From NCBI GenBank assembly GCA_964344235.1, contig CAYFMJ010000002.1, forward strand, positions 96,001 through 160,000: a DNA stretch of 64,000 nucleotides, read 5' to 3'. Position 1 is the first letter of the stretch. The number at the start of each line of letters is the position of its first letter. Shown here one piece after another: positions 1-52,831 of this stretch. The translations under genes and the position numbers were made by a program. Source of the DNA: an uncultured Methanosarcinales archaeon (GTDB taxonomy: Archaea; Nanobdellota; Nanobdellia; Woesearchaeales; GW2011-AR9). The notes under the pieces were generated by a model. That model searched no databases. It saw only the letters and a list, made by a program, of their open reading frames with translations, and had not been told where the DNA came from.

Positions 1-771
1 ACGAAACTCGGGAGGTGTAATGTGATAGAGAGTTTTGATATTATCATTGAAGCCAAAAATATTTACATCACATGTTGAGTTGTTTGCGGTGAATTGGTAT
101 GATTCAAGAAAGTTTCCTTCAGGAAATTCCCGGATGAGTTTTGTGTACATGAAATCAGGATGCGTTGTCGGATGGAATGTGTATTGGTAAATTTCTCTGT
201 TTCCTAAGGAATAATCATGGGTGTGTGGCATTAATAGTTGGATGATTTTAAGTTGCTCAATTTTTTGAATTGCATCCACCATGATTTGCACGAAACGTTG
301 TTGACTGTTTGCGTGATCAGGATTAATAGTATTGTTGAGAATGTTTTTCTCGTGCCGCTCTAATCTTTTTAGTTCAATAAATGCAGCTAATGGGTCTTCT
401 TTCAGTTTTTTTGAAATTATTCTTTGGAATCGGGCGTAGTTACCACGGATATATTGTTCATGTTGTGGATCGACGAGAAGTTGTGAATAACTGTAACGGT
501 TATCATGGTTAATTGCTTTGTATAATGATGCCAATTCCACGAGTAAGGCTGTTTGTGCCGTATCGTATTCATAATGCCGTTGTTGTGTTAAGATGATTGT
601 GGTAACGCCGCTGTTTTCAAGCAGGAGGTCAATGACTTTGCCCATGCAGACTTTACTGTATTCGATTGATGGAGGGAAAGGACATCGCTCTAAGGCAATT
701 TTGAGAATCTTGTCTTCTCCTTCGTGGTATGTTTGGGAAGCAAAACATGCTTTAGTGTTTTTATCTATCAT
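1..771 (-). CDS. N-terminal part of a probable type II/IV secretion (pilus) ATPase subunit, truncated by the window edge
   Basis: Not in the ORF track. Manual translation from the ATG at 771 is open to position 1: MIDKNTKACF...EGEDKILKIALERCPFPPSIEYSKVCMGKV...QQRHYEYD...TLYHITPPEFR. This resembles the N-terminal extension of DPANN VirB11/FlaI-family ATPases as I recall them. The Walker motifs would lie outside the window. Confidence 0.6.
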   Translation of the reverse strand, partial: MIDKNTKACFASQTYHEGEDKILKIALERCPFPPSIEYSKVCMGKVIDLLLENSGVTTIILTQQRHYEYDTAQTALLVELASLYKAINHDNRYSYSQLLVDPQHEQYIRGNYARFQRIISKKLKEDPLAAFIELKRLERHEKNILNNTINPDHANSQQRFVQIMVDAIQKIEQLKIIQLLMPHTHDYSLGNREIYQYTFHPTTHPDFMYTKLIREFPEGNFLESYQFTANNSTCDVNIFGFNDNIKTLYHITPPEFR

Positions 772-864
772 CTTTTTGAGGTAATGGGTGGTTTTGGTTT
801 ATTATTATTTCTCTTTTCATGTAGTTGAAGAAGATTTTTAAAGAATTAGTTACTCTTAAATATT

Positions 865-1467
865 ATGCTTAAAGCGATTGTTTTTGATTTTGATGGAGTA
901 CTTGTTAATACCTATGAGAATCACTATCAAACCTATGCGAGAAAGTATAAAGATCTTAGCAGAGAAGATCACAAGCGTCTCTTTGAAGGTAATATTCATG
1001 AAATGAGAGTTAAGCTTGAAGTTAAGGATGAGAACTTTAATTATGTTGCAGGATTAGGAAAATTTCTTCTTACACAAGAACTAGCACCAGATATCCTCTC
1101 AATACTGAGAAAACTTAAACAAAAATTTTCTCTATTTATTATTACTTCACATCGTGAGTCGGTCTTAAAAGAATTCTTCAACAAGCAGGAACTCAAGGAT
1201 CTTTTTGACCATGTCTATGGGCTTGAAACGCATAGAAGAAAGGAATTTAAGTTTAGACGTTTATTCGATGATTATGACTTAACTAACAAAGAAGTCATTT
1301 TTATTACGGACACACTGGGTGATATTCTCGCAGCAAATAAACTTGGAGTAAAAACTATCGCCGTTGAATTCGGGTTTCATGATAGAAAGAGGCTTGAAAA
1401 AGGTAAACCGTTAAAGATCGTTTCTAGTTTTGAGGAGATAGTGTCGCTTGTACAAAAACTCTCTTAA
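865..1467 (+). CDS. HAD-superfamily hydrolase (phosphoglycolate phosphatase-like)
   Basis: Motif I FDFDGVL, motif II ITS, motif IV ITDTLGDI. Confidence 0.85.
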   Translation: MLKAIVFDFDGVLVNTYENHYQTYARKYKDLSREDHKRLFEGNIHEMRVKLEVKDENFNYVAGLGKFLLTQELAPDILSILRKLKQKFSLFIITSHRESVLKEFFNKQELKDLFDHVYGLETHRRKEFKFRRLFDDYDLTNKEVIFITDTLGDILAANKLGVKTIAVEFGFHDRKRLEKGKPLKIVSSFEEIVSLVQKLS

Positions 1468-1531
1468 TACGTCTGTACTACTTAGAAATACTCACACAAC
1501 TTTATTATACATTCTTGCCTCTAAGAACGGA

Positions 1532-1942
1532 ATGGTAGATGCTCCTCCAGTACAGCAGGGTTTTGATCAAGCAAAGTTATATACGTGGATGAAAGGGTTA
1601 GAGATTAAAGTTAATTCGCTGGTGCGGGAAGTGGAGTTGATTAAGAGTGATGTGATGCGTAAGATTGATACTGTGAAAAAAGAAATGACTGTGTTTACAG
1701 ATGACTTATTGGAGTTAAAACGGGAGCAAGCAGGGTTTGCACAGAAAATGGATTTAGTGGTTAAAGAGTTAAAACAAACGGCAGGGAAAGAAGAGGTAGC
1801 CGTGATAAAGAAGTATTTGGATTTTTGGAGTCCACTTCATTTTGTAACGCAGCAGGATGTTGCACGGTTAGTTGAGGAACGACTTCATGATCATCATCAT
1901 AATAAAACAAAACATACAAAGGAGATTTCTCCATTTCAATAA
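1532..1942 (+). CDS. Hypothetical coiled-coil protein
   Basis: Likely start is the ATG at 1532 (MVDAPP...). Heptad-rich helical sequence, apparently in an operon with the next gene. Confidence 0.7.
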   Translation: MVDAPPVQQGFDQAKLYTWMKGLEIKVNSLVREVELIKSDVMRKIDTVKKEMTVFTDDLLELKREQAGFAQKMDLVVKELKQTAGKEEVAVIKKYLDFWSPLHFVTQQDVARLVEERLHDHHHNKTKHTKEISPFQ

Positions 1943-1954
1943 AGGGTGATACAC

Positions 1955-2503
1955 ATGGCAGATATAACATCAGCAATTATGCAATTACGAGGACAAGGTC
2001 TAACAGATGCAATAATTATAGAAGAGTTATCAAAGCAGGGGTATTCTCCTGATGAGGTACATATGGCTTTGAGTGGTTTAGAGCAGCAGAATAGTGGTTT
2101 TGATGGAGGAATGGCTCAGCAAATGGCACCTGCGTTCCAATCAGCTCCGATGCAAAGTTCGAGTGATCAGAATGGGATGTATAACAGAATCGAAGAAATT
2201 ACGGAAGGCATTGTGGATGAGAAATGGGATGAGTTAATTAAAGAAGTGAAGAAGATTGTGGAATGGAAAGCTCGTTTAGAGGACACACAGCGTCGTTTAC
2301 AAAATGATGTAGAAAAGTTGAAAGAAGATTTTAAGACATTACATTCTGGCGTTCTGGGGAAATTAGAGACGTATGATAAACGTATGGGTGACGTTGGTAC
2401 AGAACTACAAGCAGTAGGAAAGGTGTTTAAGGATGTAATCCCAACGTTTGTTGAGAATGTAAAAGAGTTAGGTCACTTAACCGGGAAAGTTAAGAAGAAA
2501 TAA
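1955..2503 (+). CDS. Hypothetical protein with a small N-terminal helical 'G-Y' domain and a long coiled coil
   Basis: SD-like GGGTGA precedes the ATG at 1955. N-terminus is ITSAIMQLRGQGLTDAIIIEELSKQGYSPDEVHMAL; the C-terminal half is coiled coil. Confidence 0.75.
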   Translation: MADITSAIMQLRGQGLTDAIIIEELSKQGYSPDEVHMALSGLEQQNSGFDGGMAQQMAPAFQSAPMQSSSDQNGMYNRIEEITEGIVDEKWDELIKEVKKIVEWKARLEDTQRRLQNDVEKLKEDFKTLHSGVLGKLETYDKRMGDVGTELQAVGKVFKDVIPTFVENVKELGHLTGKVKKK

Positions 2504-2529
2504 AATGTTTATTCTGTTTTTATTGTTGT

Positions 2530-3099
2530 TTACTTAATGGCTGAGGGGCCAGTCAACAACCCTATGGCAAAGACCATGATAGTGAAGATAATCATCATGC
2601 CAATGACTTTTGGATGACGGAGCGTTGAAACAACGTTTGTTTGGAAATTATCTGTTGCAACGCCGCCAGCACCACTTATGCTTGTTGCGTTGCCTCCGGA
2701 GCCTTCTTCTAAGAACGTTTGCCCTAATGAATTTCCAAGTGCTGCAATGAAGATAATGATGCCAACACCAAAGAGTAACCAGCCGAGGCCTCTATCATTT
2801 CGTAAGTAATTAGCAATATCTTTCTCTCCAACACCAAATATCTGGTATACCAGCAAGAGAAGCATGATAAAGAGGAATGCAACAACAAACCAGGGAATCA
2901 TGAAGTTGATAACTTCCACTGCTTTCTCTGAGATGATTACCAAGAATGCAGCGGCGGCAGCAACAACGGCATCTACACCGAGTGAAGCGCCTAATGCTCC
3001 TGTTTTCCGTAGCAAAGCAAACACAATTGCAAAAATCAGTACTGCTGCAAACACTATGTCAAATGTTTGCAGTAAACTGATGTCGAAGAGTGTTGCCAT
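2530..3099 (-). CDS. Multi-pass membrane protein, paralog 3 of a tandem triplet
   Basis: About 5 TM helices; shares the LIFAIVFALLRKTGALG motif with its neighbours. Confidence 0.8.
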   Translation of the reverse strand: MATLFDISLLQTFDIVFAAVLIFAIVFALLRKTGALGASLGVDAVVAAAAAFLVIISEKAVEVINFMIPWFVVAFLFIMLLLLVYQIFGVGEKDIANYLRNDRGLGWLLFGVGIIIFIAALGNSLGQTFLEEGSGGNATSISGAGGVATDNFQTNVVSTLRHPKVIGMMIIFTIMVFAIGLLTGPSAIK

Positions 3100-3108
3100 G
3101 ATGTAAAC

Positions 3109-3684
3109 CTATTTCTTCTCAACCAAACTCTCTAAGCCTTTCCAGATGTTCTTTACAGTATCAACACCTTTGCCTTTGCTTGGTTCTTTTGTTACAAACC
3201 ACACAACAAGGCCGAAGACAAGTATGATAATGAGCAATTCAGTAGTTTCTGAACTCCACCAACTGAAAATGTCGTACGGACCAGTCCAAATGTTTAATGA
3301 AGCTCCAAAGATGTAGAAGACAAATACAAGTGATACTAGCGCAATAATTGGGGCAGCTGCTTTGGCAAAACTTGTGCCGAAAATTCCCATGAGAAGCATA
3401 AGCATGATTGCAGCGATTGCAACTAACGAGATGCTCGGTAATGCAGAGTTAAGAACCACTACTGGGTCATATCCCAGGGGGTATGCTCCAATAATGTGCG
3501 GTACAACAAACAGTAACCCCAGTACTAATGCAATGATTACATTGAAATTTTTCCTGTCGCCTAAAATTTGTGTTTTTTGGAACACTGCGAAGACAATTGT
3601 GAATACTAACAAGAATGGTAGGAGAAAGTCCATTACTCCGTAGTTCTGAAAGAATATTGCAAGATCCTCAAATCCTGTTGCCAT
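3109..3684 (-). CDS. Multi-pass membrane protein, paralog 2 of a tandem triplet
   Basis: Contains DFLLPFLLVFTIVFAVFQKTQILG; SD GGAGG upstream. Confidence 0.85.
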   Translation of the reverse strand: MATGFEDLAIFFQNYGVMDFLLPFLLVFTIVFAVFQKTQILGDRKNFNVIIALVLGLLFVVPHIIGAYPLGYDPVVVLNSALPSISLVAIAAIMLMLLMGIFGTSFAKAAAPIIALVSLVFVFYIFGASLNIWTGPYDIFSWWSSETTELLIIILVFGLVVWFVTKEPSKGKGVDTVKNIWKGLESLVEKK

Positions 3685-3752
3685 GATAATAACCTCCTTT
3701 TGTACGTTTCGTTTTGTTGTAATTATTTGTCATTTAAAAATCCATCGTTCTC

Positions 3753-4322
3753 TTAGTCTTTCTTTTCGGTTTTTTGCGCTTTCTTTGCCGGTGGGTCTCG
3801 TACAATATACCACATAAATCCTAGTATGACTACGAGGAACACTACTGTAACGGTCCATTGAGCTGGCCATAACACAAAGATTGCTAATACAAACTGTAAC
3901 CAATCAAGAGCATCAAGGAAAATAACCACAATACCAATGAATAGAACGACCATAAAAAATTTTAACCATGCGGGGAAGCCGCCTGCGAAATCAAATTCTT
4001 GATCCTTGAAAAACACACCGATTAATAATAGGAATGAAACGGAGAGAATCAACAAAAGGACAATGTTAGCCATCACTTGGTTAATGACTGCTACAAGTTG
4101 TGTTGATGCTATTACTAAAAATGCGACAATGAACGCAACGATGGAATTAAGATTCTTTTTGGTGTATTCGTTGCCATCTATTTTTTCAATTCCTAAAATT
4201 TTCGTTTTTTCAAGTATTGCAAAAACAATTGTGAATACTAACAACAATGGTAGCACGATGTCATAGACTCCAATGTCTGTGAACACTTCAACTACGCCGC
4301 GAAAAAGACTTTCTTCTGCCAT
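3753..4322 (-). CDS. Multi-pass membrane protein, paralog 1 of a tandem triplet
   Basis: Contains DIVLPLLLVFTIVFAILEKTKILG; about 5 TM helices. Confidence 0.85.
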   Translation of the reverse strand: MAEESLFRGVVEVFTDIGVYDIVLPLLLVFTIVFAILEKTKILGIEKIDGNEYTKKNLNSIVAFIVAFLVIASTQLVAVINQVMANIVLLLILSVSFLLLIGVFFKDQEFDFAGGFPAWLKFFMVVLFIGIVVIFLDALDWLQFVLAIFVLWPAQWTVTVVFLVVILGFMWYIVRDPPAKKAQKTEKKD

Positions 4323-43892: not shown

Positions 43893-45244
43893 GCTGCTTC
43901 TTTGAAGAATTGGTCATAGATTTGACTCACAGCTTCATATCCTCGGTCTCTATCTACTGTAAGAACAAGACAGGGGCTGTTAAAACCCTTCTGATGAGCT
44001 CTCACTTTTATGTTTGCGTCATCTAAGTGTAGAAGTGTGTTTGCGATGTCTCTTTGACTTAGACCCTGGCCAGCTACTACAATGACTCCCACATCATCAA
44101 TAACTCTGACTGCGTCTTCAGGAAGGTACCCTTCATGTCCCCTGCGAACTTGGTCTAGGATTCTGTGCTTAACTCTTGTAACTTCATTAACGCCAGATAA
44201 CTCCTCGCGGTCAAAAACAAATGATGTGTCATCAACGCCCGAGAAAGCAAATTGTAGTGACCTGTCTTCTCTTTCTTCATTTTGGTATCTAGCTGCATCT
44301 AACACTCTTCTAACAACTCCTGCACTATCGTTTAAGCCAAAAGCGCTATTGTGATATACAACTAAGTCCTCTCGGTATCCAATCCCAACGACAGGATGTC
44401 CTGGCTTTGATAATCTATCGCTTACTACATAGGTGCCTTCTTCAGGGAATTGATTTGTTCCTCTTATGTGAACGGGGATTGGTGTTCCTTCTAATGGTGT
44501 GATTGCTTCTGGGTTGATGATTTCCATTCCGGAATAAGAAAGAATTCTCATCTCTAAACGAGTTATCTCTCTGACTATATCCGTTCCCGCTAATATCTTC
44601 GGGTGAACGACACGTAGTGGGCCGTCTGTAAAGTTTTCATAAACATCAACATCAAGGCCTCGTGAAATAACTCCGCCGCTTTTGTCTGATCCTCCGAAAG
44701 TGAATGTGGCCAGTTCTCCACCAATTCCTCCATAAAAGCCAGGGAAGACGAGTGTCGCTTTTTCATCTCTTAATCTTGCAAGTCTTTCGTAGGTCTCTGA
44801 GGTTACTCTTGCTTTATCAAAAGAACCCCCCAACACGAGGAATTCAAGTGGGTCGATAAATTGACCGTCAATTTCTTCTGCAAATAATCGTGCTTGCCAT
44901 TCTTCTCCGAACGCTTTGAGTGCAGCTAAATACCTCGCTTCTGGAAGTTTACTTTCGAAACGTTCTGTTAAAGACTGTTTAACTCTATCCGCACTTCCAG
45001 GGTAGATTTCTTCATAACGGCCAACGATTTTGTTGATGGTTATTCTCGCTGCAGCACTGTCTGATCTTTCCCCTGCTAATCTAACAAGAAGTTTTGTGAC
45101 TCTGATATCGTCATCATAACGGCTCCCAGGTGCGGAGAGAACAACGTATTGAATGCCTCCCTCGCTCATAACCTCTGCAACTTTTAATATTTTTTTTCTT
45201 GTTGCGGTTGAAGTTCCACCGAATTTAGCGAGTTTCCGTGTCAT
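43889..45244 (-). CDS. Aspartate kinase-family protein
   Basis: KFGGTS, VVLSAPG, GGSDKSG, DVYENFTD, YSGMEIINP; C-terminal ACT-like region. Confidence 0.8.
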   Translation of the reverse strand: MTRKLAKFGGTSTATRKKILKVAEVMSEGGIQYVVLSAPGSRYDDDIRVTKLLVRLAGERSDSAAARITINKIVGRYEEIYPGSADRVKQSLTERFESKLPEARYLAALKAFGEEWQARLFAEEIDGQFIDPLEFLVLGGSFDKARVTSETYERLARLRDEKATLVFPGFYGGIGGELATFTFGGSDKSGGVISRGLDVDVYENFTDGPLRVVHPKILAGTDIVREITRLEMRILSYSGMEIINPEAITPLEGTPIPVHIRGTNQFPEEGTYVVSDRLSKPGHPVVGIGYREDLVVYHNSAFGLNDSAGVVRRVLDAARYQNEEREDRSLQFAFSGVDDTSFVFDREELSGVNEVTRVKHRILDQVRRGHEGYLPEDAVRVIDDVGVIVVAGQGLSQRDIANTLLHLDDANIKVRAHQKGFNSPCLVLTVDRDRGYEAVSQIYDQFFKEAA

Positions 45245-45270
45245 TTTGTGTCAGTTTACGTTATTCTTAT

Positions 45271-46041
45271 TTAAACTTGTTTTCTGTAACGTGGTTCTGG
45301 TTGGTTAGTGGCTGTTTTCTGAGCTTCGAATCTTTCGTATGCATCTCCAAGCCAAAGGATTAATTCCACTCCCATTGGTGCTCTGGAATCAACTCCGTAT
45401 GTTGCTTGAAGATATTCGAAGCAGTCTTGGCTTGGTTTCTTGAATACGGGACAACCTCTTGCTTTACCGTGACCAAGTCTCTTGGCAACTTCCATGTCTA
45501 AGCCTTTTGGCGAATCCCTATCAATTAAATCTATGTCAACAGGGTCCATATATGTTGGGCCTTCCATAACTCCAATAGCAGCTTTTGTTGCTCCGAGATG
45601 AGACAAACTTACATGTCCAAGGGTGGCTGTGGCCGTTAGATATTTTCTGGGTTCGCGAGCGTAGGTTTCTTTGAGTTTTAATGCCACTCTAACTGCAGTG
45701 AGGAGCCCTTTTTCCCCTATTGTTCTCAAAGTTGGAAACCCATGGGGAACTGCAACACGGCAATATGGGGAGGTTCGTACAACCAAGTCTACTTCTCGTA
45801 TTTTTTTATCAACGTATGTGGCGTGGTCTTGTTTGGTTATGAATTTCCACCAGGTCTGCACCATAGATGCTTCTAAAATTTCTCTTAGGCTTGTTCTGCT
45901 TTCTTTTGGAATTGGTTCCTGGCCGTTAACTGCAAGTTTATGTTCTTCCCACCAAATTCTAAATACATCGGTTAAACCTTGTTCATATGCTCTAAACCCA
46001 GCGGTTTGTTGTGTTGCGATGCTTGCATCGATTGAACCCAT
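45271..46041 (-). CDS. Hypothetical protein
   Basis: 256-aa ORF with TTTAAATA upstream; no motif recognised. Confidence 0.6.
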   Translation of the reverse strand: MGSIDASIATQQTAGFRAYEQGLTDVFRIWWEEHKLAVNGQEPIPKESRTSLREILEASMVQTWWKFITKQDHATYVDKKIREVDLVVRTSPYCRVAVPHGFPTLRTIGEKGLLTAVRVALKLKETYAREPRKYLTATATLGHVSLSHLGATKAAIGVMEGPTYMDPVDIDLIDRDSPKGLDMEVAKRLGHGKARGCPVFKKPSQDCFEYLQATYGVDSRAPMGVELILWLGDAYERFEAQKTATNQPEPRYRKQV

Positions 46042-46114
46042 TTTTGCTTCAAATTGGCTTCTATTTAAATCACTATTGGTTAGTGGTGGCCGTATTCTCT
46101 ATTTTTAGAAAATC

Positions 46115-46122
46115 TTTAAATA
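46115..46122 (+). promoter_or_regulatory. TATA box in front of the truncated methylthiotransferase 5' copy
   Basis: TTTAAATA with A-rich BRE-like sequence, 22 nt before the ATG at 46144 (leaderless-type spacing). Confidence 0.55.
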
Positions 46123-46143
46123 TACACTCTTTAGCAAGCCATT

Positions 46144-46239
46144 ATGACATCATTTTATATCCATACGTATGGTTGCTCAGCGAATGTGGCGGACTCTGAA
46201 CAGATGAAGACCCACTCCCCACCGGTCAAGTCCGGATAA
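46144..46239 (+). pseudogene. Truncated 5' remnant of the tRNA methylthiotransferase gene
   Basis: Encodes MTSFYIHTYGCSANVADSEQM plus 10 unrelated codons and a stop. This matches the N-terminus MTNVYFFTQGCSANVADSEQM of the intact gene at 47230. Confidence 0.85.
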
Positions 46240-47292
46240 AGTATATAAACAATTTCTTAGAATATTTTTGTTCATCAAAGGGGTTGAGATGAACAAAAAA
46301 TATCACTTCGAAATTGAACAAATTCTTGAGCTAGCAGATTTGTATGAGCTGGGAGTTCCTTTGAGAACCATTGCAAAAATTCATGGAATGAACTCTGCTA
46401 CTCTTTGGCATAGACTCAAAAAGTATGAAGAACAAGAATTATTTCAGTTTAGGTCACGCTCTGAAACAGTCTTAATGACCTTGTCGAAGAGTAGAACTAG
46501 CCCAAAAGGAGAAAAAACCAAGCGAGTTAAGGATTGGTTTAAGAATTTTGGAAGAGAAGGGATACTAGATATTCTTACTGTGTTTCTTCTTGTTGAAGCC
46601 TCAGCTGATTATAAGTATGGAATGATAAGACTGACTAATTCTGATGAAACACTACTTCAAATATTTACAGACATACTCTTATTACTTAACTTGGAACCAA
46701 GACAAACAATCGATTCGAGAAATAATTTGCGAGTTGTTTTTAGTAGGAATTCTAGAACTCGGAAAGTGTTAGATGAAATTTATGTAAGAACTCCCACTAC
46801 CAAACACCAACCACGGAGGGGCACCGAAAATTGGGAAATGTATTTGAAGACAACGCAACCCAATTTGCTTTGGTTGTATGGTCGATCGAGAAAATTAATT
46901 GAACTGTGTTTTCGAATCGCAATGTCCTGTGATGGTTCCGTTTTTAGGAGCAGGGGTATTAAGCATCTCCCCGATAGACCACAATTAACCCTAGTCTGTT
47001 TTCATCCGCTATTACTTTTACAATGGAAAGAGATAGCTAGCCTAATTGGACTCAACATGAATATCTCGGGGAAAAGAATTCGATCCAGGAGTATCGAAAC
47101 TTCACGCAAATTTTTAAAAATGGGTGCCTTTTTAGAAGGTGTGAGGATATCCTCCAAAGGATCAAAACAATTTCGGGGAATAGAGAAAAATACCCGGTTG
47201 AATGATTTATTGAATACATATGATTTAAGATGACAAATGTATATTTTTTTACACAGGGATGTAGTGCTAATGTTGCTGACTCAGAACAGATG
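46207..47292 (+). mobile_element. Free-standing homing-endonuclease element carrying a replacement 5' end of its target gene
   Basis: Bounded by the duplicated junction GACTC(T/A)GAACAGATG. Contains its own TATA (TATATAAA 46242-49), the LAGLIDADG ORF and the recoded codons 1-21 of the target gene. Confidence 0.7.
46289..47233 (+). CDS. LAGLIDADG-family endonuclease with an N-terminal HTH
   Basis: HTH GVPLRTIAKIHGMNSATLWHRL; degenerate motif 1 LTVFLLVEAS followed by IRLTNSDETLL; motif 2 CFRIAMSCDGSV. The stop overlaps the start of the next gene (ATGA). Confidence 0.75.
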   Translation: MNKKYHFEIEQILELADLYELGVPLRTIAKIHGMNSATLWHRLKKYEEQELFQFRSRSETVLMTLSKSRTSPKGEKTKRVKDWFKNFGREGILDILTVFLLVEASADYKYGMIRLTNSDETLLQIFTDILLLLNLEPRQTIDSRNNLRVVFSRNSRTRKVLDEIYVRTPTTKHQPRRGTENWEMYLKTTQPNLLWLYGRSRKLIELCFRIAMSCDGSVFRSRGIKHLPDRPQLTLVCFHPLLLLQWKEIASLIGLNMNISGKRIRSRSIETSRKFLKMGAFLEGVRISSKGSKQFRGIEKNTRLNDLLNTYDLR

Positions 47293-48510
47293 GCAGGATT
47301 ACTGGAGCAAGCTAAATTTAGCATAGTTAACAGAATTCAAGAAGCACATGTTATTGTTATGAATTCGTGTTCAGTTAAATCACCTTCTGAATCTATGTTT
47401 TTCAAAACTTTGGAACAATTTAAGCAAGAACATCCGCATAAATTAATTGTGGTGGCTGGATGTATCCCAGAGGCTGATCCACGGAAGTTTAAAGAGTATT
47501 CAGTTGTTGGTACACAAAGCATTCATCATATCGTGCAGGTAGTGGAAGAAACACTGAATGATAATGTTTTACAGATTCTAGGAAATGAAGAAGTGCCACC
47601 ATTGGATATGCCGAAAGTGCGAAAGAATCCTGTTGTAGAAATTATTCCAATTAATAGAGGTTGTTTGGGAGCATGTACATTTTGTAAAACGAAACAAGCA
47701 CGGGGGAATTTGATCTCTTACTCTGTTGATGAAATAGTTGATGTTGCTCAAAAAGCGTTATCAGAAGGAGTGAAAGAGATTTGGTTAACTTCACAGGATA
47801 CATTTTGTTACGGTTTTGATATTGGGACAGATATTGTGGAGTTGCTCAATGAGTTGGTTAAGTTAGATGGTGATTTCTTTATTCGTGTGGGAATGGGTAA
47901 CCCAGATCATATGCCGAAAGTGCAGGAGGGGTTAATTGAGGTGTATAAACATCCGAAGATTTTCAAGTTTTTGCATTTACCATTACAAGCAGGTCATAAT
48001 TATACTCTGCAGCAGATGCGTCGGAGGTATACAGTGCAGCAATTTAGAGATACAGTCGATGCATTTAGGAAAGCGATTCCTGAAATTAATTTGATGACTG
48101 ATATTATTGTGGGGTATCCAACAGAAAATGAAGATCATTTCTGGGGAACGTTGCAAGCTGTTAGACGAGTAACGCCAGATTCAATTAATATTTCACGGTT
48201 CTGGCCACGGCCAGGTACGCCTGCTGCTGAATTAAAACCGTTAGATGGTGGAGAGGTAAAGAAACGATCAACAGTGATAACAGATATTTTTCATAATATA
48301 TCTACCCTGCAAAATGAACGATGGAAAGGTTGGGAAGGTTCTGTGTTAATTGATGAGAAAGGAAAGGATGGTCAATGGATTGGTCGGAATTATTGTTATA
48401 AACCAGTGATTGTTGAAGGGGATTTTAATTTAGGTGATTCAGTTAAAGTTCGGATTGTGAAAACTGGATTATTTGATTTACGGGGGGAAGTAGTGAATGG
48501 TACAGCGTGA
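47230..48510 (+). CDS. mtaB: tRNA t6A methylthiotransferase (MtaB/CDKAL1-like radical SAM enzyme)
   Basis: GCSAN...NSCSVK...VAGC MTTase domain, GCLGACTFC radical-SAM motif, C-terminal TRAM domain. Confidence 0.9.
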   Translation: MTNVYFFTQGCSANVADSEQMAGLLEQAKFSIVNRIQEAHVIVMNSCSVKSPSESMFFKTLEQFKQEHPHKLIVVAGCIPEADPRKFKEYSVVGTQSIHHIVQVVEETLNDNVLQILGNEEVPPLDMPKVRKNPVVEIIPINRGCLGACTFCKTKQARGNLISYSVDEIVDVAQKALSEGVKEIWLTSQDTFCYGFDIGTDIVELLNELVKLDGDFFIRVGMGNPDHMPKVQEGLIEVYKHPKIFKFLHLPLQAGHNYTLQQMRRRYTVQQFRDTVDAFRKAIPEINLMTDIIVGYPTENEDHFWGTLQAVRRVTPDSINISRFWPRPGTPAAELKPLDGGEVKKRSTVITDIFHNISTLQNERWKGWEGSVLIDEKGKDGQWIGRNYCYKPVIVEGDFNLGDSVKVRIVKTGLFDLRGEVVNGTA

Positions 48511-48551
48511 TGAAGCGAGATTATCTCTTGATGATACTGTAGGGGCTCCCA

Positions 48552-48848
48552 GTGTTGAGAACTCTTTCAACAAGGAAAGCTAAATGGGGTTTTGCTCTTA
48601 CAACTATGGTTGCTGCATTTTATGTAGGAGATTCAAATCCAGATGTTGTTTCATTACCTCAAAATGCTTGGGAATATTTGCTTGCTGGCGTTCCTGCCGT
48701 TGGTACTGTGATTTCGTCTGGACTTGTAAATGGTCGCTATGCTTCACGCCAGGATTTTGAAACAATGTTTTCGGAAGGTCTTGCAAAAGGAACGAAATTA
48801 GCAGTTTTTAGTGCAATGCTTGGTTATGCCGCTGGATCTTTCTTCTAA
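48552..48848 (+). CDS. Small hypothetical membrane protein
   Basis: Three hydrophobic segments. Confidence 0.5.
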   Translation: MLRTLSTRKAKWGFALTTMVAAFYVGDSNPDVVSLPQNAWEYLLAGVPAVGTVISSGLVNGRYASRQDFETMFSEGLAKGTKLAVFSAMLGYAAGSFF

Positions 48849-48890
48849 TTATTCGAAACTATTAAAAATCACTTTCATTCTATCTGTGAA

Positions 48891-50636
48891 ATGAATGCAA
48901 AAGAGTTACGGGAGAAGTATTTTAATTTCTTTAAGGAGAAAGGACATGCTATTATTCCCTCAGCATCATTAATTCCAATGAATGATGCGTCAGTATTATT
49001 CAACACAGCAGGAATGCAACCACTTGTTCCGTATTTGATGGGAAATGTTCATCCTGCCGGCAAAAGATTAGTTAATTTACAGAAATGTTTACGAACGGTT
49101 GACTTTGAAAATATTGGAGATAATACGCACCATACGTTTTTCCAGATGTTAGGGAATTGGTCACTAGGGGATTATTTTAAGAAAGATACGATCGCCTGGA
49201 GTTTTGAATTCTTAACAGAAGTGTTGCAATTACCCTTAAACATGCTGGCGTTTACTGTGTATAAAGGTGATGACGTTGTGCCTGCGGATGAGGAAGCGGC
49301 ACAGTTCTGGGAAGCGCATGGAGTTCCTAGAAAAAGAATTGCATTTTTAGGGAAAGATAACTTCTGGTCGGCTGGTGAGACGGGTCCATGTGGTCCATCA
49401 ACAGAGATGTTTTATTGGACGGGTAAAGGAGAAGCGCCAGAGGAGTTTGATGCAGAGGATGAGCAGTGGGTGGAGATTTGGAATGATGTATTTATGACGT
49501 ATAATCGGGATGACAAGGGTAATCTGTCTCCATTACAACAAAAGAACGTCGATACAGGAATGGGTTTTGAAAGGGCATTAGCAGTGTTGAATGGGAAAGA
49601 GAGTGCATATGAAACGTCGTTATTTGCTGGTGCGATTCTCAAGTTAACAGAGTTAAGTGGAAGAAACTATGCGGACTGCAAGAAAGAGATGCGCATTGTT
49701 GTTGACCATTTACGAGCAGCAGTGTTTGTGTTAGGTGATGAGAATGGTGTTGTGCCGTCAAATGTTGATAGGGGATATATTTTACGACGATTGATTCGAA
49801 GAGCGATTCGGTTTGCCAAACAGATTGGTATTGATGAAATGTTCACTGCTGAGATTAGCAAGATCTTCATTGCAGAGTATGGTGAGTATTATACGGAGTT
49901 AGAGAAGAATAAAGAAAAGATTATTGGTGAGTTACAGAAAGAGGAACAGAAATTTGCATTGACGTTAGAGAAGGGATTGCGTGTGTTTGAGAAGTTAGCT
50001 GCGCAAGCAGATGTTATTTCTGGAAAAGATGCGTTCTTATTATTCCAATCATATGGTTTTCCATTAGAGATGACGCAGGAGTTAGCAATGGAACAGGGAA
50101 TTAGTGTTGATGAAGCTGTGTTTAAAGAAGAATATGAAAAACACCAGGGCTTATCTCGAACAGCATCTGCAGGGAAGTTTAAAGGCGGCTTAGCAGATAA
50201 TTCCCCTGAAACAACTCGGTTACATACAGCTACTCACTTATTGGCTGAGGCGTTACGAAGAGTGTTAGGTTCTGAGGTTAAGCAGCGAGGTTCGAATATT
50301 ACGCCTGAAAGACTGCGGTTTGATTTTACATTTGATAGAAAGTTAACGCCGGAAGAGATTAAAGCAGTTGAAGATGAAGTGAATAAAGTTATTGATTCTC
50401 ATGTTGAAGTTAGGCGAGTAGAGATGACGAAAGAGGAAGCAGTGAGGTTAGGTGCACAAATGGAGTTCGGTGCAAAGTATCCAGACAGAGTGAGCGTCTA
50501 TTTTGTTGGTGAGTATTCTAAAGAATTTTGTGGTGGACCGCACGTAAAGAATACGTCTGAGATTGGACATTTTAAAATTGTGAAAGAGAAAAGTTCTTCT
50601 GGTGGTGTGAGACGGATTAAGGCTGTTTTGGAGTAA
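48891..50636 (+). CDS. alaS: Alanyl-tRNA synthetase, short form lacking the C-Ala domain
   Basis: LFNTAGMQPL, HHTFFQMLGNWSLGDYFK, DTGMGFER, HTATHL, EFCGGPHV; ends at GVRRIKAVLE. Confidence 0.95.
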   Translation: MNAKELREKYFNFFKEKGHAIIPSASLIPMNDASVLFNTAGMQPLVPYLMGNVHPAGKRLVNLQKCLRTVDFENIGDNTHHTFFQMLGNWSLGDYFKKDTIAWSFEFLTEVLQLPLNMLAFTVYKGDDVVPADEEAAQFWEAHGVPRKRIAFLGKDNFWSAGETGPCGPSTEMFYWTGKGEAPEEFDAEDEQWVEIWNDVFMTYNRDDKGNLSPLQQKNVDTGMGFERALAVLNGKESAYETSLFAGAILKLTELSGRNYADCKKEMRIVVDHLRAAVFVLGDENGVVPSNVDRGYILRRLIRRAIRFAKQIGIDEMFTAEISKIFIAEYGEYYTELEKNKEKIIGELQKEEQKFALTLEKGLRVFEKLAAQADVISGKDAFLLFQSYGFPLEMTQELAMEQGISVDEAVFKEEYEKHQGLSRTASAGKFKGGLADNSPETTRLHTATHLLAEALRRVLGSEVKQRGSNITPERLRFDFTFDRKLTPEEIKAVEDEVNKVIDSHVEVRRVEMTKEEAVRLGAQMEFGAKYPDRVSVYFVGEYSKEFCGGPHVKNTSEIGHFKIVKEKSSSGGVRRIKAVLE

Positions 50637-51997: not shown

Positions 51998-52177
51998 CCC
52001 CTCTTAGTTTAGCTTGGCTAGAACGCTCCGCTGTGTGTTCTTAGGAAACTGAGAACAGGCGAGAGATAAGTTCACTGTTGGACTAAGCCTTTAGGGCTCT
52101 GGATGAAATACAGCCAGTGGGGACGGAGAGACATCTTCGGATGCTTCAAATCCCCGGTTCAAATCCGGGAGAGGGGA
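51998..52177 (+). tRNA. tRNA-Tyr(GTA) with three BHB introns (35/36 inside the anticodon, 37/38, 45/46)
   Basis: Exons 51998-52034, 52064-52065, 52123-52130 and 52150-52177 give CCCCTCTTAGTTTAGCTTGGCTAGAACGCTCCGCTGTAGACGGAGAGATCCCCGGTTCAAATCCGGGAGAGGGGA. C1-G72 and A73 are archaeal Tyr identity elements. The BHBs of introns 1 and 3 are fully paired. Confidence 0.85.
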
Positions 52178-52831
52178 CTCCGAAGGCAGGGTGTGCGTTC
52201 TCACCCTTGCCTTCACATATTTTTCAATTTTTTCTTGTTTTCTAACACAATAAAAACCAATTTCTTTGTAGAACTTTTCTATGTCTTTGATCACAATTGC
52301 GAAAACATTTCTTTTTGCACCAAATCCCGATTTAATAGTGTTCTCTATTCCGAATTCAGAGATCATTTTTTGTACTTGTTTTAGGCCTTTGAAATTGATT
52401 GAGTAGAGTCTTAAAATTAATCTTCTTCCTTCTGGGATTACACTCCCCTCGTCGTCGTATAGGGCTTTTAAGAACTCACGCTTGATGCTTTTACTAGCTT
52501 CTATAATTTCTTTTGGAACGGTCCAAGTCCTAGAGAAGTAATCACAGTAACTCTTAAGATCTTCATATGCTAATTTTGACCTAACTCTTGCGTAAGGAAG
52601 AAGCTTGCCCGTTTTTCCGGATGGCTTGAGTGCAACAACCGGTTTTAGCCCATAAACATTGTCTAAGTCATCAACAAACTGTTGTAGTAATTCTGGGTCT
52701 GTGATGTCATATTTAATGTTGTAATCAGTTCGGCACTTGTAAGCACAACCATCGCCAATCAAGTGAGCGATTAGCCTTGCTTTAGCTTCTGTTAACTCTT
52801 TGAAGCCGGGTTTTAGTCTCTTGATTCTCAT
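52091..52831 (-). CDS. Free-standing two-motif LAGLIDADG homing endonuclease
   Basis: Motif 1 ARLIAHLIGDG, motif 2 EFLKALYDDEGSV, RLYSINFKGLKQV. The C-terminal ~30 codons run antisense through tRNA-Tyr. Confidence 0.85.
   Translation of the reverse strand: MRIKRLKPGFKELTEAKARLIAHLIGDGCAYKCRTDYNIKYDITDPELLQQFVDDLDNVYGLKPVVALKPSGKTGKLLPYARVRSKLAYEDLKSYCDYFSRTWTVPKEIIEASKSIKREFLKALYDDEGSVIPEGRRLILRLYSINFKGLKQVQKMISEFGIENTIKSGFGAKRNVFAIVIKDIEKFYKEIGFYCVRKQEKIEKYVKARVRTHTLPSESPLPDLNRGFEASEDVSPSPLAVFHPEP
52182..52214. terminator. Strong hairpin immediately 3' of tRNA-Tyr
   Basis: GAAGGCAGGGTG/CACCC(T)TGCCTTC followed by T-rich sequence on the + strand. Confidence 0.5.

Follow-up and report, generated by a model that had tools for sequence, protein, structure and literature searches.

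In the window (the whole stretch of chromosomal DNA from a tiny DPANN archaeon that was analysed, 64 kb in length), the gene for a tRNA t6A37 methylthiotransferase of the e-MtaB/CDKAL1 type carries an insert of 1086 bp, placed after its codon 21 (46207..47292; all features described here are on the forward strand). The insert is made of a 314-aa endonuclease ORF and a second copy of the methylthiotransferase codons 1-21, which heads the intact gene. The anatomy proposed in an initial annotation of this DNA, namely a stub of the gene, a LAGLIDADG ORF, an ATGA junction and a second gene start, was recovered with every element in its place.

The TATA-like box read in the sequence upstream of the native gene start (46116..46125) has similar counterparts about 25-30 nt 5' of the ATG in the orthologues without the endonuclease gene. 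It possibly now serves the stub alone, apart from read-through transcription that it may also support. The stub itself, hereafter copy 1, holds methylthiotransferase codons 1-21 (46144..46206). In the left end of the insert (46207..46239), the copy-1 frame stays open for 10 unrelated codons, up to the stop at 46237-46239. A GC-rich 25-nt motif with a small hairpin (CCGG-loop-CCGG) lies at this left end of the cassette (46214..46238) and is about 80% identical to positions 3016-3041 of the homologous locus L026, at the equivalent place after the stub of that locus; a BLAST search of the genome found no further copy. The base composition of the insert was no different from that of the flanks.

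The endonuclease gene (46289..47233) is preceded by a second TATA-like box, the putative cassette promoter (46242..46249). AT-rich TATA-like sequences occupy the equivalent place in L025, L026, L030 and L042, so that such a box was seen in all five of the close loci. The initial annotation gave the cassette a promoter of its own; the box is there, while its use is conjectural and read-through from the stub promoter is possible. Judging from sequence, a promoter belonging to the cassette is plausible.

The endonuclease stop codon and the ATG of the intact gene overlap in an ATGA (47230-47233). The second copy of the gene start, copy 2, thus spans 47230..47292, and the intact gene of 426 aa spans 47230..48510. 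Its product scored 419.4 bits against TIGR01578 (e-MtaB/CDKAL1), compared to the curated cutoff of 314.7, and contains the Pfam domains UPF0004, Radical_SAM and TRAM.

Native and foreign copies of the gene start

Copies 1 and 2 share 16 of 21 residues and 42 of 63 bases. Eight codons differ synonymously; a codon count confirmed the earlier observation that seven of them fall into an identical 12-residue stretch. Immediately 5' of the breakpoint, 14 of the final 15 bases are the same in both copies. A profile of the gene start, run in six frames over the whole 64-kb window, matched at copies 1 and 2 only, and therefore the duplication is not due to chance.

A question raised in the initial annotation was which copy groups with uninvaded orthologues. 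We found that it is copy 1. The gene-body tree placed the window gene as sister to the gene of genome G001, and copy 1 agreed with G001 in 19 of 21 residues (nine synonymous and two non-synonymous codon differences), while copy 2 agreed in 14 of 21 residues, with six non-synonymous codon differences. The stub of locus L042 showed the same pattern with respect to L016, with 24 of 26 residues shared and 13 synonymous plus two non-synonymous differences, compared to 10 non-synonymous differences for the L042 copy-2 segment. The stub-type start was present in 19 of the 20 closest database orthologues; one close orthologue, P0124, has a copy-2-like start, and its contig ends 13 nt before the gene. 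The start type of window copy 2 resembles copy 2 of the other cassettes. At the level of sequence, these comparisons identify copy 1 as the native start and copy 2 as the foreign one.

Trees of the start segment (first 80 residues, which give too few columns) did not discriminate: AU tests rejected nothing (p from 0.13 to 0.62), and so the native and foreign assignments rest on the identity counts. Residues 26-85 of the intact gene product already grouped with G001, as did the gene from residue 26 or 31 onward. By this grouping, the foreign tract appears to be short.

The synonymous differences had been read in the initial annotation as a recoding that makes the new start resistant to cleavage. 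That interpretation is not supported. Synonymous differences are expected anyway between two long-diverged lineages of the segment, and with 14 of 15 bases identical beside the junction, immunity is not evident from the sequence.

The endonuclease protein

The AF2 model of the 314-aa ORF had a pLDDT of 94.5 and a pTM of 0.85. It shows an N-terminal HTH domain (approximately residues 9-47) and a double-motif LAGLIDADG core (approximately residues 79-313), in which the predicted helices 79-102 and 201-215 are each followed by beta strands. Foldseek matched the model with probability 1.00 to I-Tsp061I, I-OnuI, I-LtrI, I-AniI and PI-SceI; the top PDB matches were I-Tsp061I, the best one, I-OnuI and I-LtrI. 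The predicted structure has the arrangement of the LAGLIDADG superfamily, two alpha-beta-beta-alpha-beta-beta-alpha domains packed through two LAGLIDADG helices. The model and the Foldseek matches thus upheld the original LAGLIDADG call, and we regard the ORF as a protein with the LAGLIDADG fold, as modelled.

The score of the window protein against Pfam LAGLIDADG_3 was 18.8 bits, below the cutoff of 22.5 bits, and 42 of the 63 aligned homologues matched this family, with the best E-value of 1.4e-11. Acidic residues E103 and D215 sit at the ends of the LAGLIDADG helices, and acidic positions are kept in the homologues. The first motif reads V-E-A in the window protein compared to T-D-G in the family (E-A is also found in P0003); at the motif of D215 the family has D/E-G. 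The endonuclease gene is single-copy in the genome.

Recurrence of the cassette

Searches that included a profile search of GTDB contigs revealed at least seven other archaeal cassette loci. The closest homologues of the endonuclease were 42-65% identical to it, and the eight distinct loci, the window included, all abut the start of e-mtaB: the endonuclease gene is within 4 nt of this start, or overlaps it, in eight of eight, while the upstream neighbours differ among the loci. The initial annotation suggested a search of other genomes for LAGLIDADG genes flanked by duplicated N-termini, and this layout was indeed seen in the seven other loci. Independent assemblies of other loci repeat it (L026/L027/L028 and L029/L039/L042), which makes an assembly error unlikely; the possibility of a chimera, raised at the outset, was judged accordingly.

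An upstream stub of 13-28 codons was kept in seven of the eight loci, and several stubs carry stops or deletions. Six of the seven stubs end at codons 21-26. Since the end points vary among loci (13, 21 and about 24-26), one precise insertion site is not demonstrated. Six of the seven ends lie 7-12 codons downstream of the GCxxN Fe-S motif, and the earlier proposal that the enzyme cuts at this motif is not supported. Within the family, identity between loci was 58-65% for the endonuclease and 51-65% for the host gene. On these sequence identities, the endonuclease would track its host gene. This is compatible with long co-residence, and no recent long-range transfer is indicated.

The cassette layout is not confined to e-mtaB. 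An Obg-like GTPase gene in genome G174 (locus L059) has an intact start and a 38-codon stub, and a paralogous endonuclease separates the two; the alignment score was 141, compared to the null maximum of 36. Distant homologues located beside genes for Endo_dU, an ABC-ATPase and UDP-glucose dehydrogenase had no duplicated start, and thus the layout is not universal in the family.

Empty alleles in related genomes

The comparison with related genomes called for in the initial annotation produced empty alleles. The endonuclease ORF was not found in 40 of the 41 related genomes examined, nor in a syntenic relative (AA-kinase ... MTTase ... AlaRS) whose methylthiotransferase is 76% identical. Relatives that lack the endonuclease and still carry both copies of the start had been named as evidence against a homing element; all 19 of the 19 orthologous loci without the endonuclease that were read have a single gene start. 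No endonuclease relics were found by tblastn upstream of the orthologues without the endonuclease (all E > 0.5). Partial gene matches in G007, G011 and G012 were considered as split genes and rejected, being contig-end truncations.

In the gene-body tree, the four genes that bear the endonuclease fell into four clades, each with neighbours that lack it. The cassette is therefore distributed like a homing element: it occurs sporadically, at one site of a conserved gene, and relatives have empty alleles. Its association with e-mtaB is old and sporadic. Cassette-free genomes showed two types of e-mtaB start, whose distribution on the gene tree needs at least 10 switches.

Alternative explanations

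Removal of the insert by splicing would make the stub exon 1 of an intron-bearing gene, with either an archaeal bulge-helix-bulge (BHB) or a group I intron. The stub does retain a promoter and an ATG, and its end is in frame with codon 22 of the gene. No Rfam family was matched in 45000-49500 at E<=1, however, and the pairing at the junctions was no better than in shuffled sequences (-16.8 compared to the mean of -23.0 kcal/mol); both intron types were rejected on these grounds. Moreover, copy 2 includes an ATG and is complete as a gene start, the stub ends vary by locus, and several stubs are damaged, all of which leaves an intron very improbable. An intein was rejected as well, since the ORF has start and stop codons of its own and Pfam shows no intein domain in it. 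We consider it just as improbable that the duplication is a local tandem event or an assembly artefact unrelated to the endonuclease, whose gene landed nearby or was joined in a chimeric contig. A single assembly of the exact locus is on record, but independent assemblies and distant genomes show the three-part layout again, and the copies diverge by 33% in DNA, unlike a fresh duplication or a collapsed repeat.

Another explanation is that the ORF encodes a domesticated, immobile protein with the LAGLIDADG fold, such as a WhiA-like DNA-binding regulator or the product of a translation-coupling leader gene, inherited vertically with e-mtaB, in which case the stub is what remains of one old insertion. 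WhiA structures are among the best fold matches, the ORF has an HTH domain, endonuclease identity follows that of the host gene, and the tight coupling to the gene start is kept in every locus. Unlike WhiA, though, the family has retained acidic residues at both catalytic positions. The absence of the gene from nearly all of the related genomes and its scatter in the gene tree argue against this explanation, and stubs that differ from sister genes almost only synonymously are unexpected for a long-dead relic. Domestication is thus unlikely, if less so than an intron or an artefact.

Discussion

With high probability, the insert is a free-standing LAGLIDADG homing-endonuclease cassette that entered the 5' end of e-mtaB, brought a substitute start and stranded the native one. 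The core of the earlier claim, an intron-less and intein-less homing element that rebuilds the start of its host gene, is therefore retained, while cutting at GCxxN and resistance by recoding are not supported.

In the cassette (46207-47292), a short leader that contains a TATA-like box is followed by the endonuclease gene and by substitute codons 1-21. This substitute start joins the native gene body in frame; the native promoter and the native codons 1-21 remain upstream, as a dead stub. The working gene has its own ATG, overlapping the endonuclease stop, and so no splicing is needed. The enzyme would cut cassette-free alleles in the conserved start region, at about codons 15-30. In the repair that follows, a cassette-bearing allele would be the template, with its left homology arm provided by the stub and its right arm by the gene body, and the endonuclease gene would be copied in together with the substitute start. 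We infer that the enzyme cuts, where it cuts and that it is active today, and likewise the use of the promoter, the coupling of translation and the endonuclease-dependent copying into an empty allele. The analysis itself shows how the locus is built, which fold the protein has, that the layout recurs, that empty alleles exist and which of the copies is native and which foreign. Each stub looks as if it had been functional until recently, which is in keeping with repeated homing into intact alleles and not with a single ancient insertion.

The closest known parallels are fungal mitochondrial mORFs, which make gene hybrids in atp6 of Allomyces macrogynus and in atp6, atp9, cox2 and nad3 of Glomus (PMC3630166 and work cited there). 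In mORFs, likewise, a protein-coding gene harbours a free-standing LAGLIDADG or GIY-YIG gene, and neither an intron nor an intein is involved; a foreign gene end comes with the cassette, and the displaced native one resembles that of related species more closely, with mostly synonymous differences (PMC3630166). By sequence comparison, the window cassette shares this hallmark, a foreign gene end beside a displaced native one that is more like that of relatives. On the other hand, mORFs replace the C-terminus, often with the endonuclease fused in frame with the host gene (PMC3630166), whereas the window cassette replaces the N-terminus, the start codon and the promoter context, and its endonuclease is encoded upstream by an ORF of its own, the stop codon of which overlaps with the ATG of the host gene. 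The hosts differ too, an archaeal chromosome compared to an organelle.

In T4-like phages, free-standing homing endonucleases (seg and mob genes) practise 'intronless homing' and similarly lie between or beside conserved genes (PMC2988022, PMC2790892). These enzymes are thought to cut the endonuclease-less allele within a conserved gene next to their own, and to spread through repair in which the flanks are co-converted; their genes are intergenic, have no duplicated gene end and belong to the GIY-YIG and HNH families (PMC2988022, PMC2790892). The window cassette, in contrast, interrupts a coding region and supplies a substitute start. With archaeal intron- and intein-encoded LAGLIDADG enzymes of the I-Tsp061I, I-DmoI and PI-SceI type, it shares the fold and the kind of catalytic motif. 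Their host genes are spared by RNA or protein splicing, whereas the cassette lacks intein blocks as well as any ribozyme or BHB signal.

A spare gene start is a third way, beside introns and inteins, for a homing endonuclease to inhabit a protein-coding gene harmlessly. The C-terminal version was already known from fungal mitochondria; here it is a conserved N-terminal version in archaeal chromosomes, which broadens the host range and the design space known for homing elements. It accounts for mosaic N-termini and for stray fragments of gene starts in DPANN genomes, features likely missed or misread by annotation pipelines. The cassettes are also a source of natural LAGLIDADG enzymes with targets readable from stub junctions, and they offer a case, open to testing, in which a selfish gene makes the expression of its host gene dependent on itself.

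More tentatively, DPANN archaea may host homing cassettes of a hitherto undescribed, splicing-free class. In these, one HTH-LAGLIDADG family would insert into housekeeping genes at their 5' ends (e-mtaB, an Obg-like GTPase gene and perhaps others), bringing a substitute start each time and tying host transcription and translation to the cassette; we hold this broader reading to be a serious possibility, somewhat short of probable. If it is true, a cassette to which host expression is tied would be hard to lose, and the two e-mtaB start types in cassette-free genomes would be the footprints of past invasions and losses.

Layout of the interrupted locus

The tRNA methylthiotransferase gene (e-mtaB) of the window is preceded by a stranded copy of its own start. 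A TATA-like box (46116–46125) stands before a 21-codon methylthiotransferase start (copy 1, the stub; 46144–46206), whose frame continues through 10 unrelated codons to a stop at 46237–46239. A second TATA-like box (46242–46249) is followed by an inserted ORF of 314 codons (46289–47233), with a stop overlapping the ATG of the intact methylthiotransferase gene (426 codons, 47230–48510). Copy 2 is made up of codons 1–21 of the intact gene; together with the second TATA-like box and the inserted ORF, it forms the cassette. The copies are identical at 16 of 21 residues and 42 of 63 bases, and a six-frame scan of the whole window with a gene-start profile matched these two places only. This is the layout described in the initial annotation, at the positions it gave; its seven synonymous codon differences in an identical 12-residue stretch were also counted here, among eight over the two copies.

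A GC-rich 25-nt motif, immediately downstream of the stub and ahead of the cassette TATA-like box, was observed in the window (46214–46238) and at another e-mtaB locus (L026:3016–3041). It is ~80% conserved between the two, whose endonucleases share 58% identity only, and is predicted to fold into a hairpin of 4–5 bp, in which two pair changes leave the pairing intact; L025, L030 and L042 lack the motif. Upstream, a 256-aa ORF (45271–46041, reverse strand) with no match in Pfam or NCBIfam separates the amino-acid kinase gene from the stub. A DHDPS-family gene on the opposite strand takes this slot in L054, a syntenic relative without the homing-endonuclease gene (HEG).

The two gene products

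The downstream gene scored above the TIGR01578 curated cutoff (archaeal/eukaryotic t6A37 methylthiotransferase of the e-MtaB/CDKAL1 type), and its product combines UPF0004, radical SAM and TRAM domains. With the inserted ORF alone, matches to Pfam LAGLIDADG_3 and to an HTH family were weak. Exhaustive searching with HMMER yielded 117 homologues, and LAGLIDADG_3 was matched by 42 of 63 aligned ones. The AlphaFold model, of high confidence (pLDDT 94.5, pTM 0.85), has an N-terminal three-helix HTH followed by two alpha-beta-beta-alpha-beta-beta-alpha halves. Its top Foldseek matches were I-Tsp061I, I-OnuI, I-LtrI, I-AniI and PI-SceI, with WhiA, a non-catalytic relative, among them. The LAGLIDADG identity initially assigned to the ORF is thus supported by the predicted fold. 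The acidic residues E103 and D215 end the two LAGLIDADG helices; at the first site, the family consensus is T-D-G, compared to V-E-A in the window and T-E-A in one close homologue.

The endonuclease ORF is intact. It occurs once in the 1.19-Mb genome, where a search with the 314-aa protein (E ≤ 10) returned only the query itself. A second LAGLIDADG gene, beside tRNA-Tyr (52091–52831), is not a close paralogue.

Recurrence and rarity

Contigs were traced for the four closest homologues (58–62% identity) and three more distant ones (43–44%), while scans of genome collections contributed additional copies as well as a partial locus not seen before. Wherever the sequence could be read, the endonuclease gene ended within 4 nt of, or overlapped, the ATG of an e-mtaB gene, with upstream neighbours varying between loci. 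Counting the window, there were eight distinct loci. A stub of 13–28 codons was recognisable in seven: the window, L025, L026 (= L027, L028), L042 (= L029, L039), L030, L031 (= L040) and L038 (= L041). It was not recognisable at L035 (= L044). A LAGLIDADG gene is therefore found at seven further e-mtaB loci, six with a stub. The hosts are DPANN archaea by database labels (Nanoarchaeota/Woesearchaeota) and protein names.

At L031, 3.4 kb separate the upstream stub from the endonuclease gene, as further genes, including a reverse transcriptase, landed between them. The stub occupies L031:482–568, and in the interval 637–3940 two unknown ORFs are accompanied by an RVT_1 reverse transcriptase with HTH; these genes form an insertion nested in the cassette's dead space.

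Searches of 40 related genomes, representing 24 genera of the same family and 16 families of the same order, did not find the endonuclease; of the 41 genomes searched when the window's own is counted, 37 have the methylthiotransferase. In agreement with the initial reading, endonuclease-free relatives do not keep both copies: each of 19 HEG-less orthologous loci had a single gene start, with a TATA box about 25–30 nt upstream. No insert is present in the most similar database orthologue (76% identity), whose neighbourhood is syntenic (amino-acid kinase ... MTTase ... AlaRS). Across 301 genomes of the order, just 7 had any member of the wider endonuclease family.

Two HEG-less genes, L023 (G019) and L024 (G011), have no first cysteine of the N-terminal cluster motif in their first 15 codons, Q-N-N-A-A and Q-D-S-P-V, respectively, replacing the usual G-C-S-A-N. 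The sister of the L023 gene is that of L026, which bears the cassette; the missing cysteine may reflect decay or an altered start region.

Alternative explanations

An intron was rejected since no Rfam family and no pairing between the junctions were found, and an intein since the ORF starts and stops independently of the host gene and a Hint domain is absent; the element is intron-less and intein-less, as first proposed. The same layout in independent assemblies speaks against an assembly artefact. A domesticated WhiA-like regulator is a less likely reading of the window's own copy: it agrees badly with the conservation of the catalytic residues, with so scattered a distribution and with stubs this young. 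A homing endonuclease is the preferred reading.

Native and foreign gene starts

In a tree of residues 31 to the end, the window gene is sister to that of the sister genome G001, and the four HEG-bearing genes at family level are spread over four clades, with HEG-less genes beside each. We observed that the stub resembles the uninvaded orthologue more closely than copy 2 does. The window stub shares 19 of 21 residues with G001 (9 synonymous, 2 non-synonymous differences), compared to 14 of 21 for copy 2 (7 and 6). Similarly, the stub of L042 shares 24 of 26 residues with the HEG-less locus L016 (13 and 2), compared to 16 of 26 for its copy 2 (6 and 10). Of the 20 database proteins closest to the window enzyme, 19 had the stub-type start; at the five positions separating the copies, these 19 agree with the stub at 2–4 and with copy 2 at none. 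The mostly synonymous differences and the stub-type starts of relatives argue that the stubs are native and were under purifying selection until recently, the working starts having come from elsewhere. Residues 26–85 of the window enzyme group with G001, which limits the foreign tract to more or less the duplicated segment. Trees built from the short start segment by itself had no power.

Among 117 database e-mtaB orthologues, both start types coexist in cassette-free genes, with at least 10 switches of the copy-2 kind on a gene-body FastTree. The switches may have been left by cassettes that once invaded, or may reflect simple homoplasy at two positions.

Predicted target site and expression

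The stub ends at codon 13 in L026, at codon 21 or 22 in the window, and at about codon 24–26 in L025, L030, L031, L038 and L042; some stubs carry small deletions or stops. These ends point to a target in the conserved stretch after the GCxxN codons, and not in that motif, where cutting had initially been placed. The proposed cleavage-resistant recoding is not evident at the junction: the 15 bases left of the window junction differ from their copy 2 counterpart at one base only, so the resident gene would look cleavable if the target is centred on the junction. Synonymous differences farther upstream would be expected anyway between long-separated lineages.

Native alleles look leaderless from their sequence. 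Since copy 2 has no room for its own promoter, we infer transcription of the cassette-bearing gene from the cassette TATA-like box or the stub promoter. Translation is probably by coupling to the endonuclease ORF, whose stop overlaps the host ATG (ATGA) in four of five close loci, with a 4-nt gap in the fifth.

Related systems and proposed mode of spread

A paralogous family member in G174, a genome of the same order, sits between two copies of another gene's start (L059, G174:C13, reverse strand, oriented coordinates). A 38-codon stub (636–749) is followed by the endonuclease (904–2397) and an Obg-like (YGR210-type) GTPase gene with an intact start (2419–3618); stub and GTPase start aligned with a score of 141, compared to a null maximum of 36. 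Other distant members adjoin starts of other conserved genes, where a stub is not recognisable. The unpublished genome G231 underlies none of these conclusions.

The closest described system is that of the fungal mitochondrial mORFs, which insert near the 3' end of atp6, atp9, cox2 or nad3 and bring a foreign C-terminus, the displaced native one being closer to related species (PMC3630166). The e-mtaB cassette is their mirror image: a gene end is likewise foreign and the native end displaced, but at the N-terminus. Phage 'intronless homing' shares the free-standing logic but is not known to replace a gene end (PMC2988022, PMC2790892). A full-text literature search found no paper connecting LAGLIDADG with methylthiotransferase genes, and among the matches listed for homing endonucleases and DPANN, none described such cassettes by title and abstract.

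Endonuclease identity between loci tracks host-gene identity, both within the family (58–65% and 51–65%, respectively) and to outgroups (42–48% and 38–47%). Judged from these comparisons, the association of the cassette with e-mtaB is old. It is also rare, and the stubs are young. In what we infer to be the simplest reconciliation, cassette lineages would persist for long and repeatedly home into the intact alleles carried by close relatives, each time leaving a fresh native start stranded; cassettes would be lost through replacement by empty alleles.
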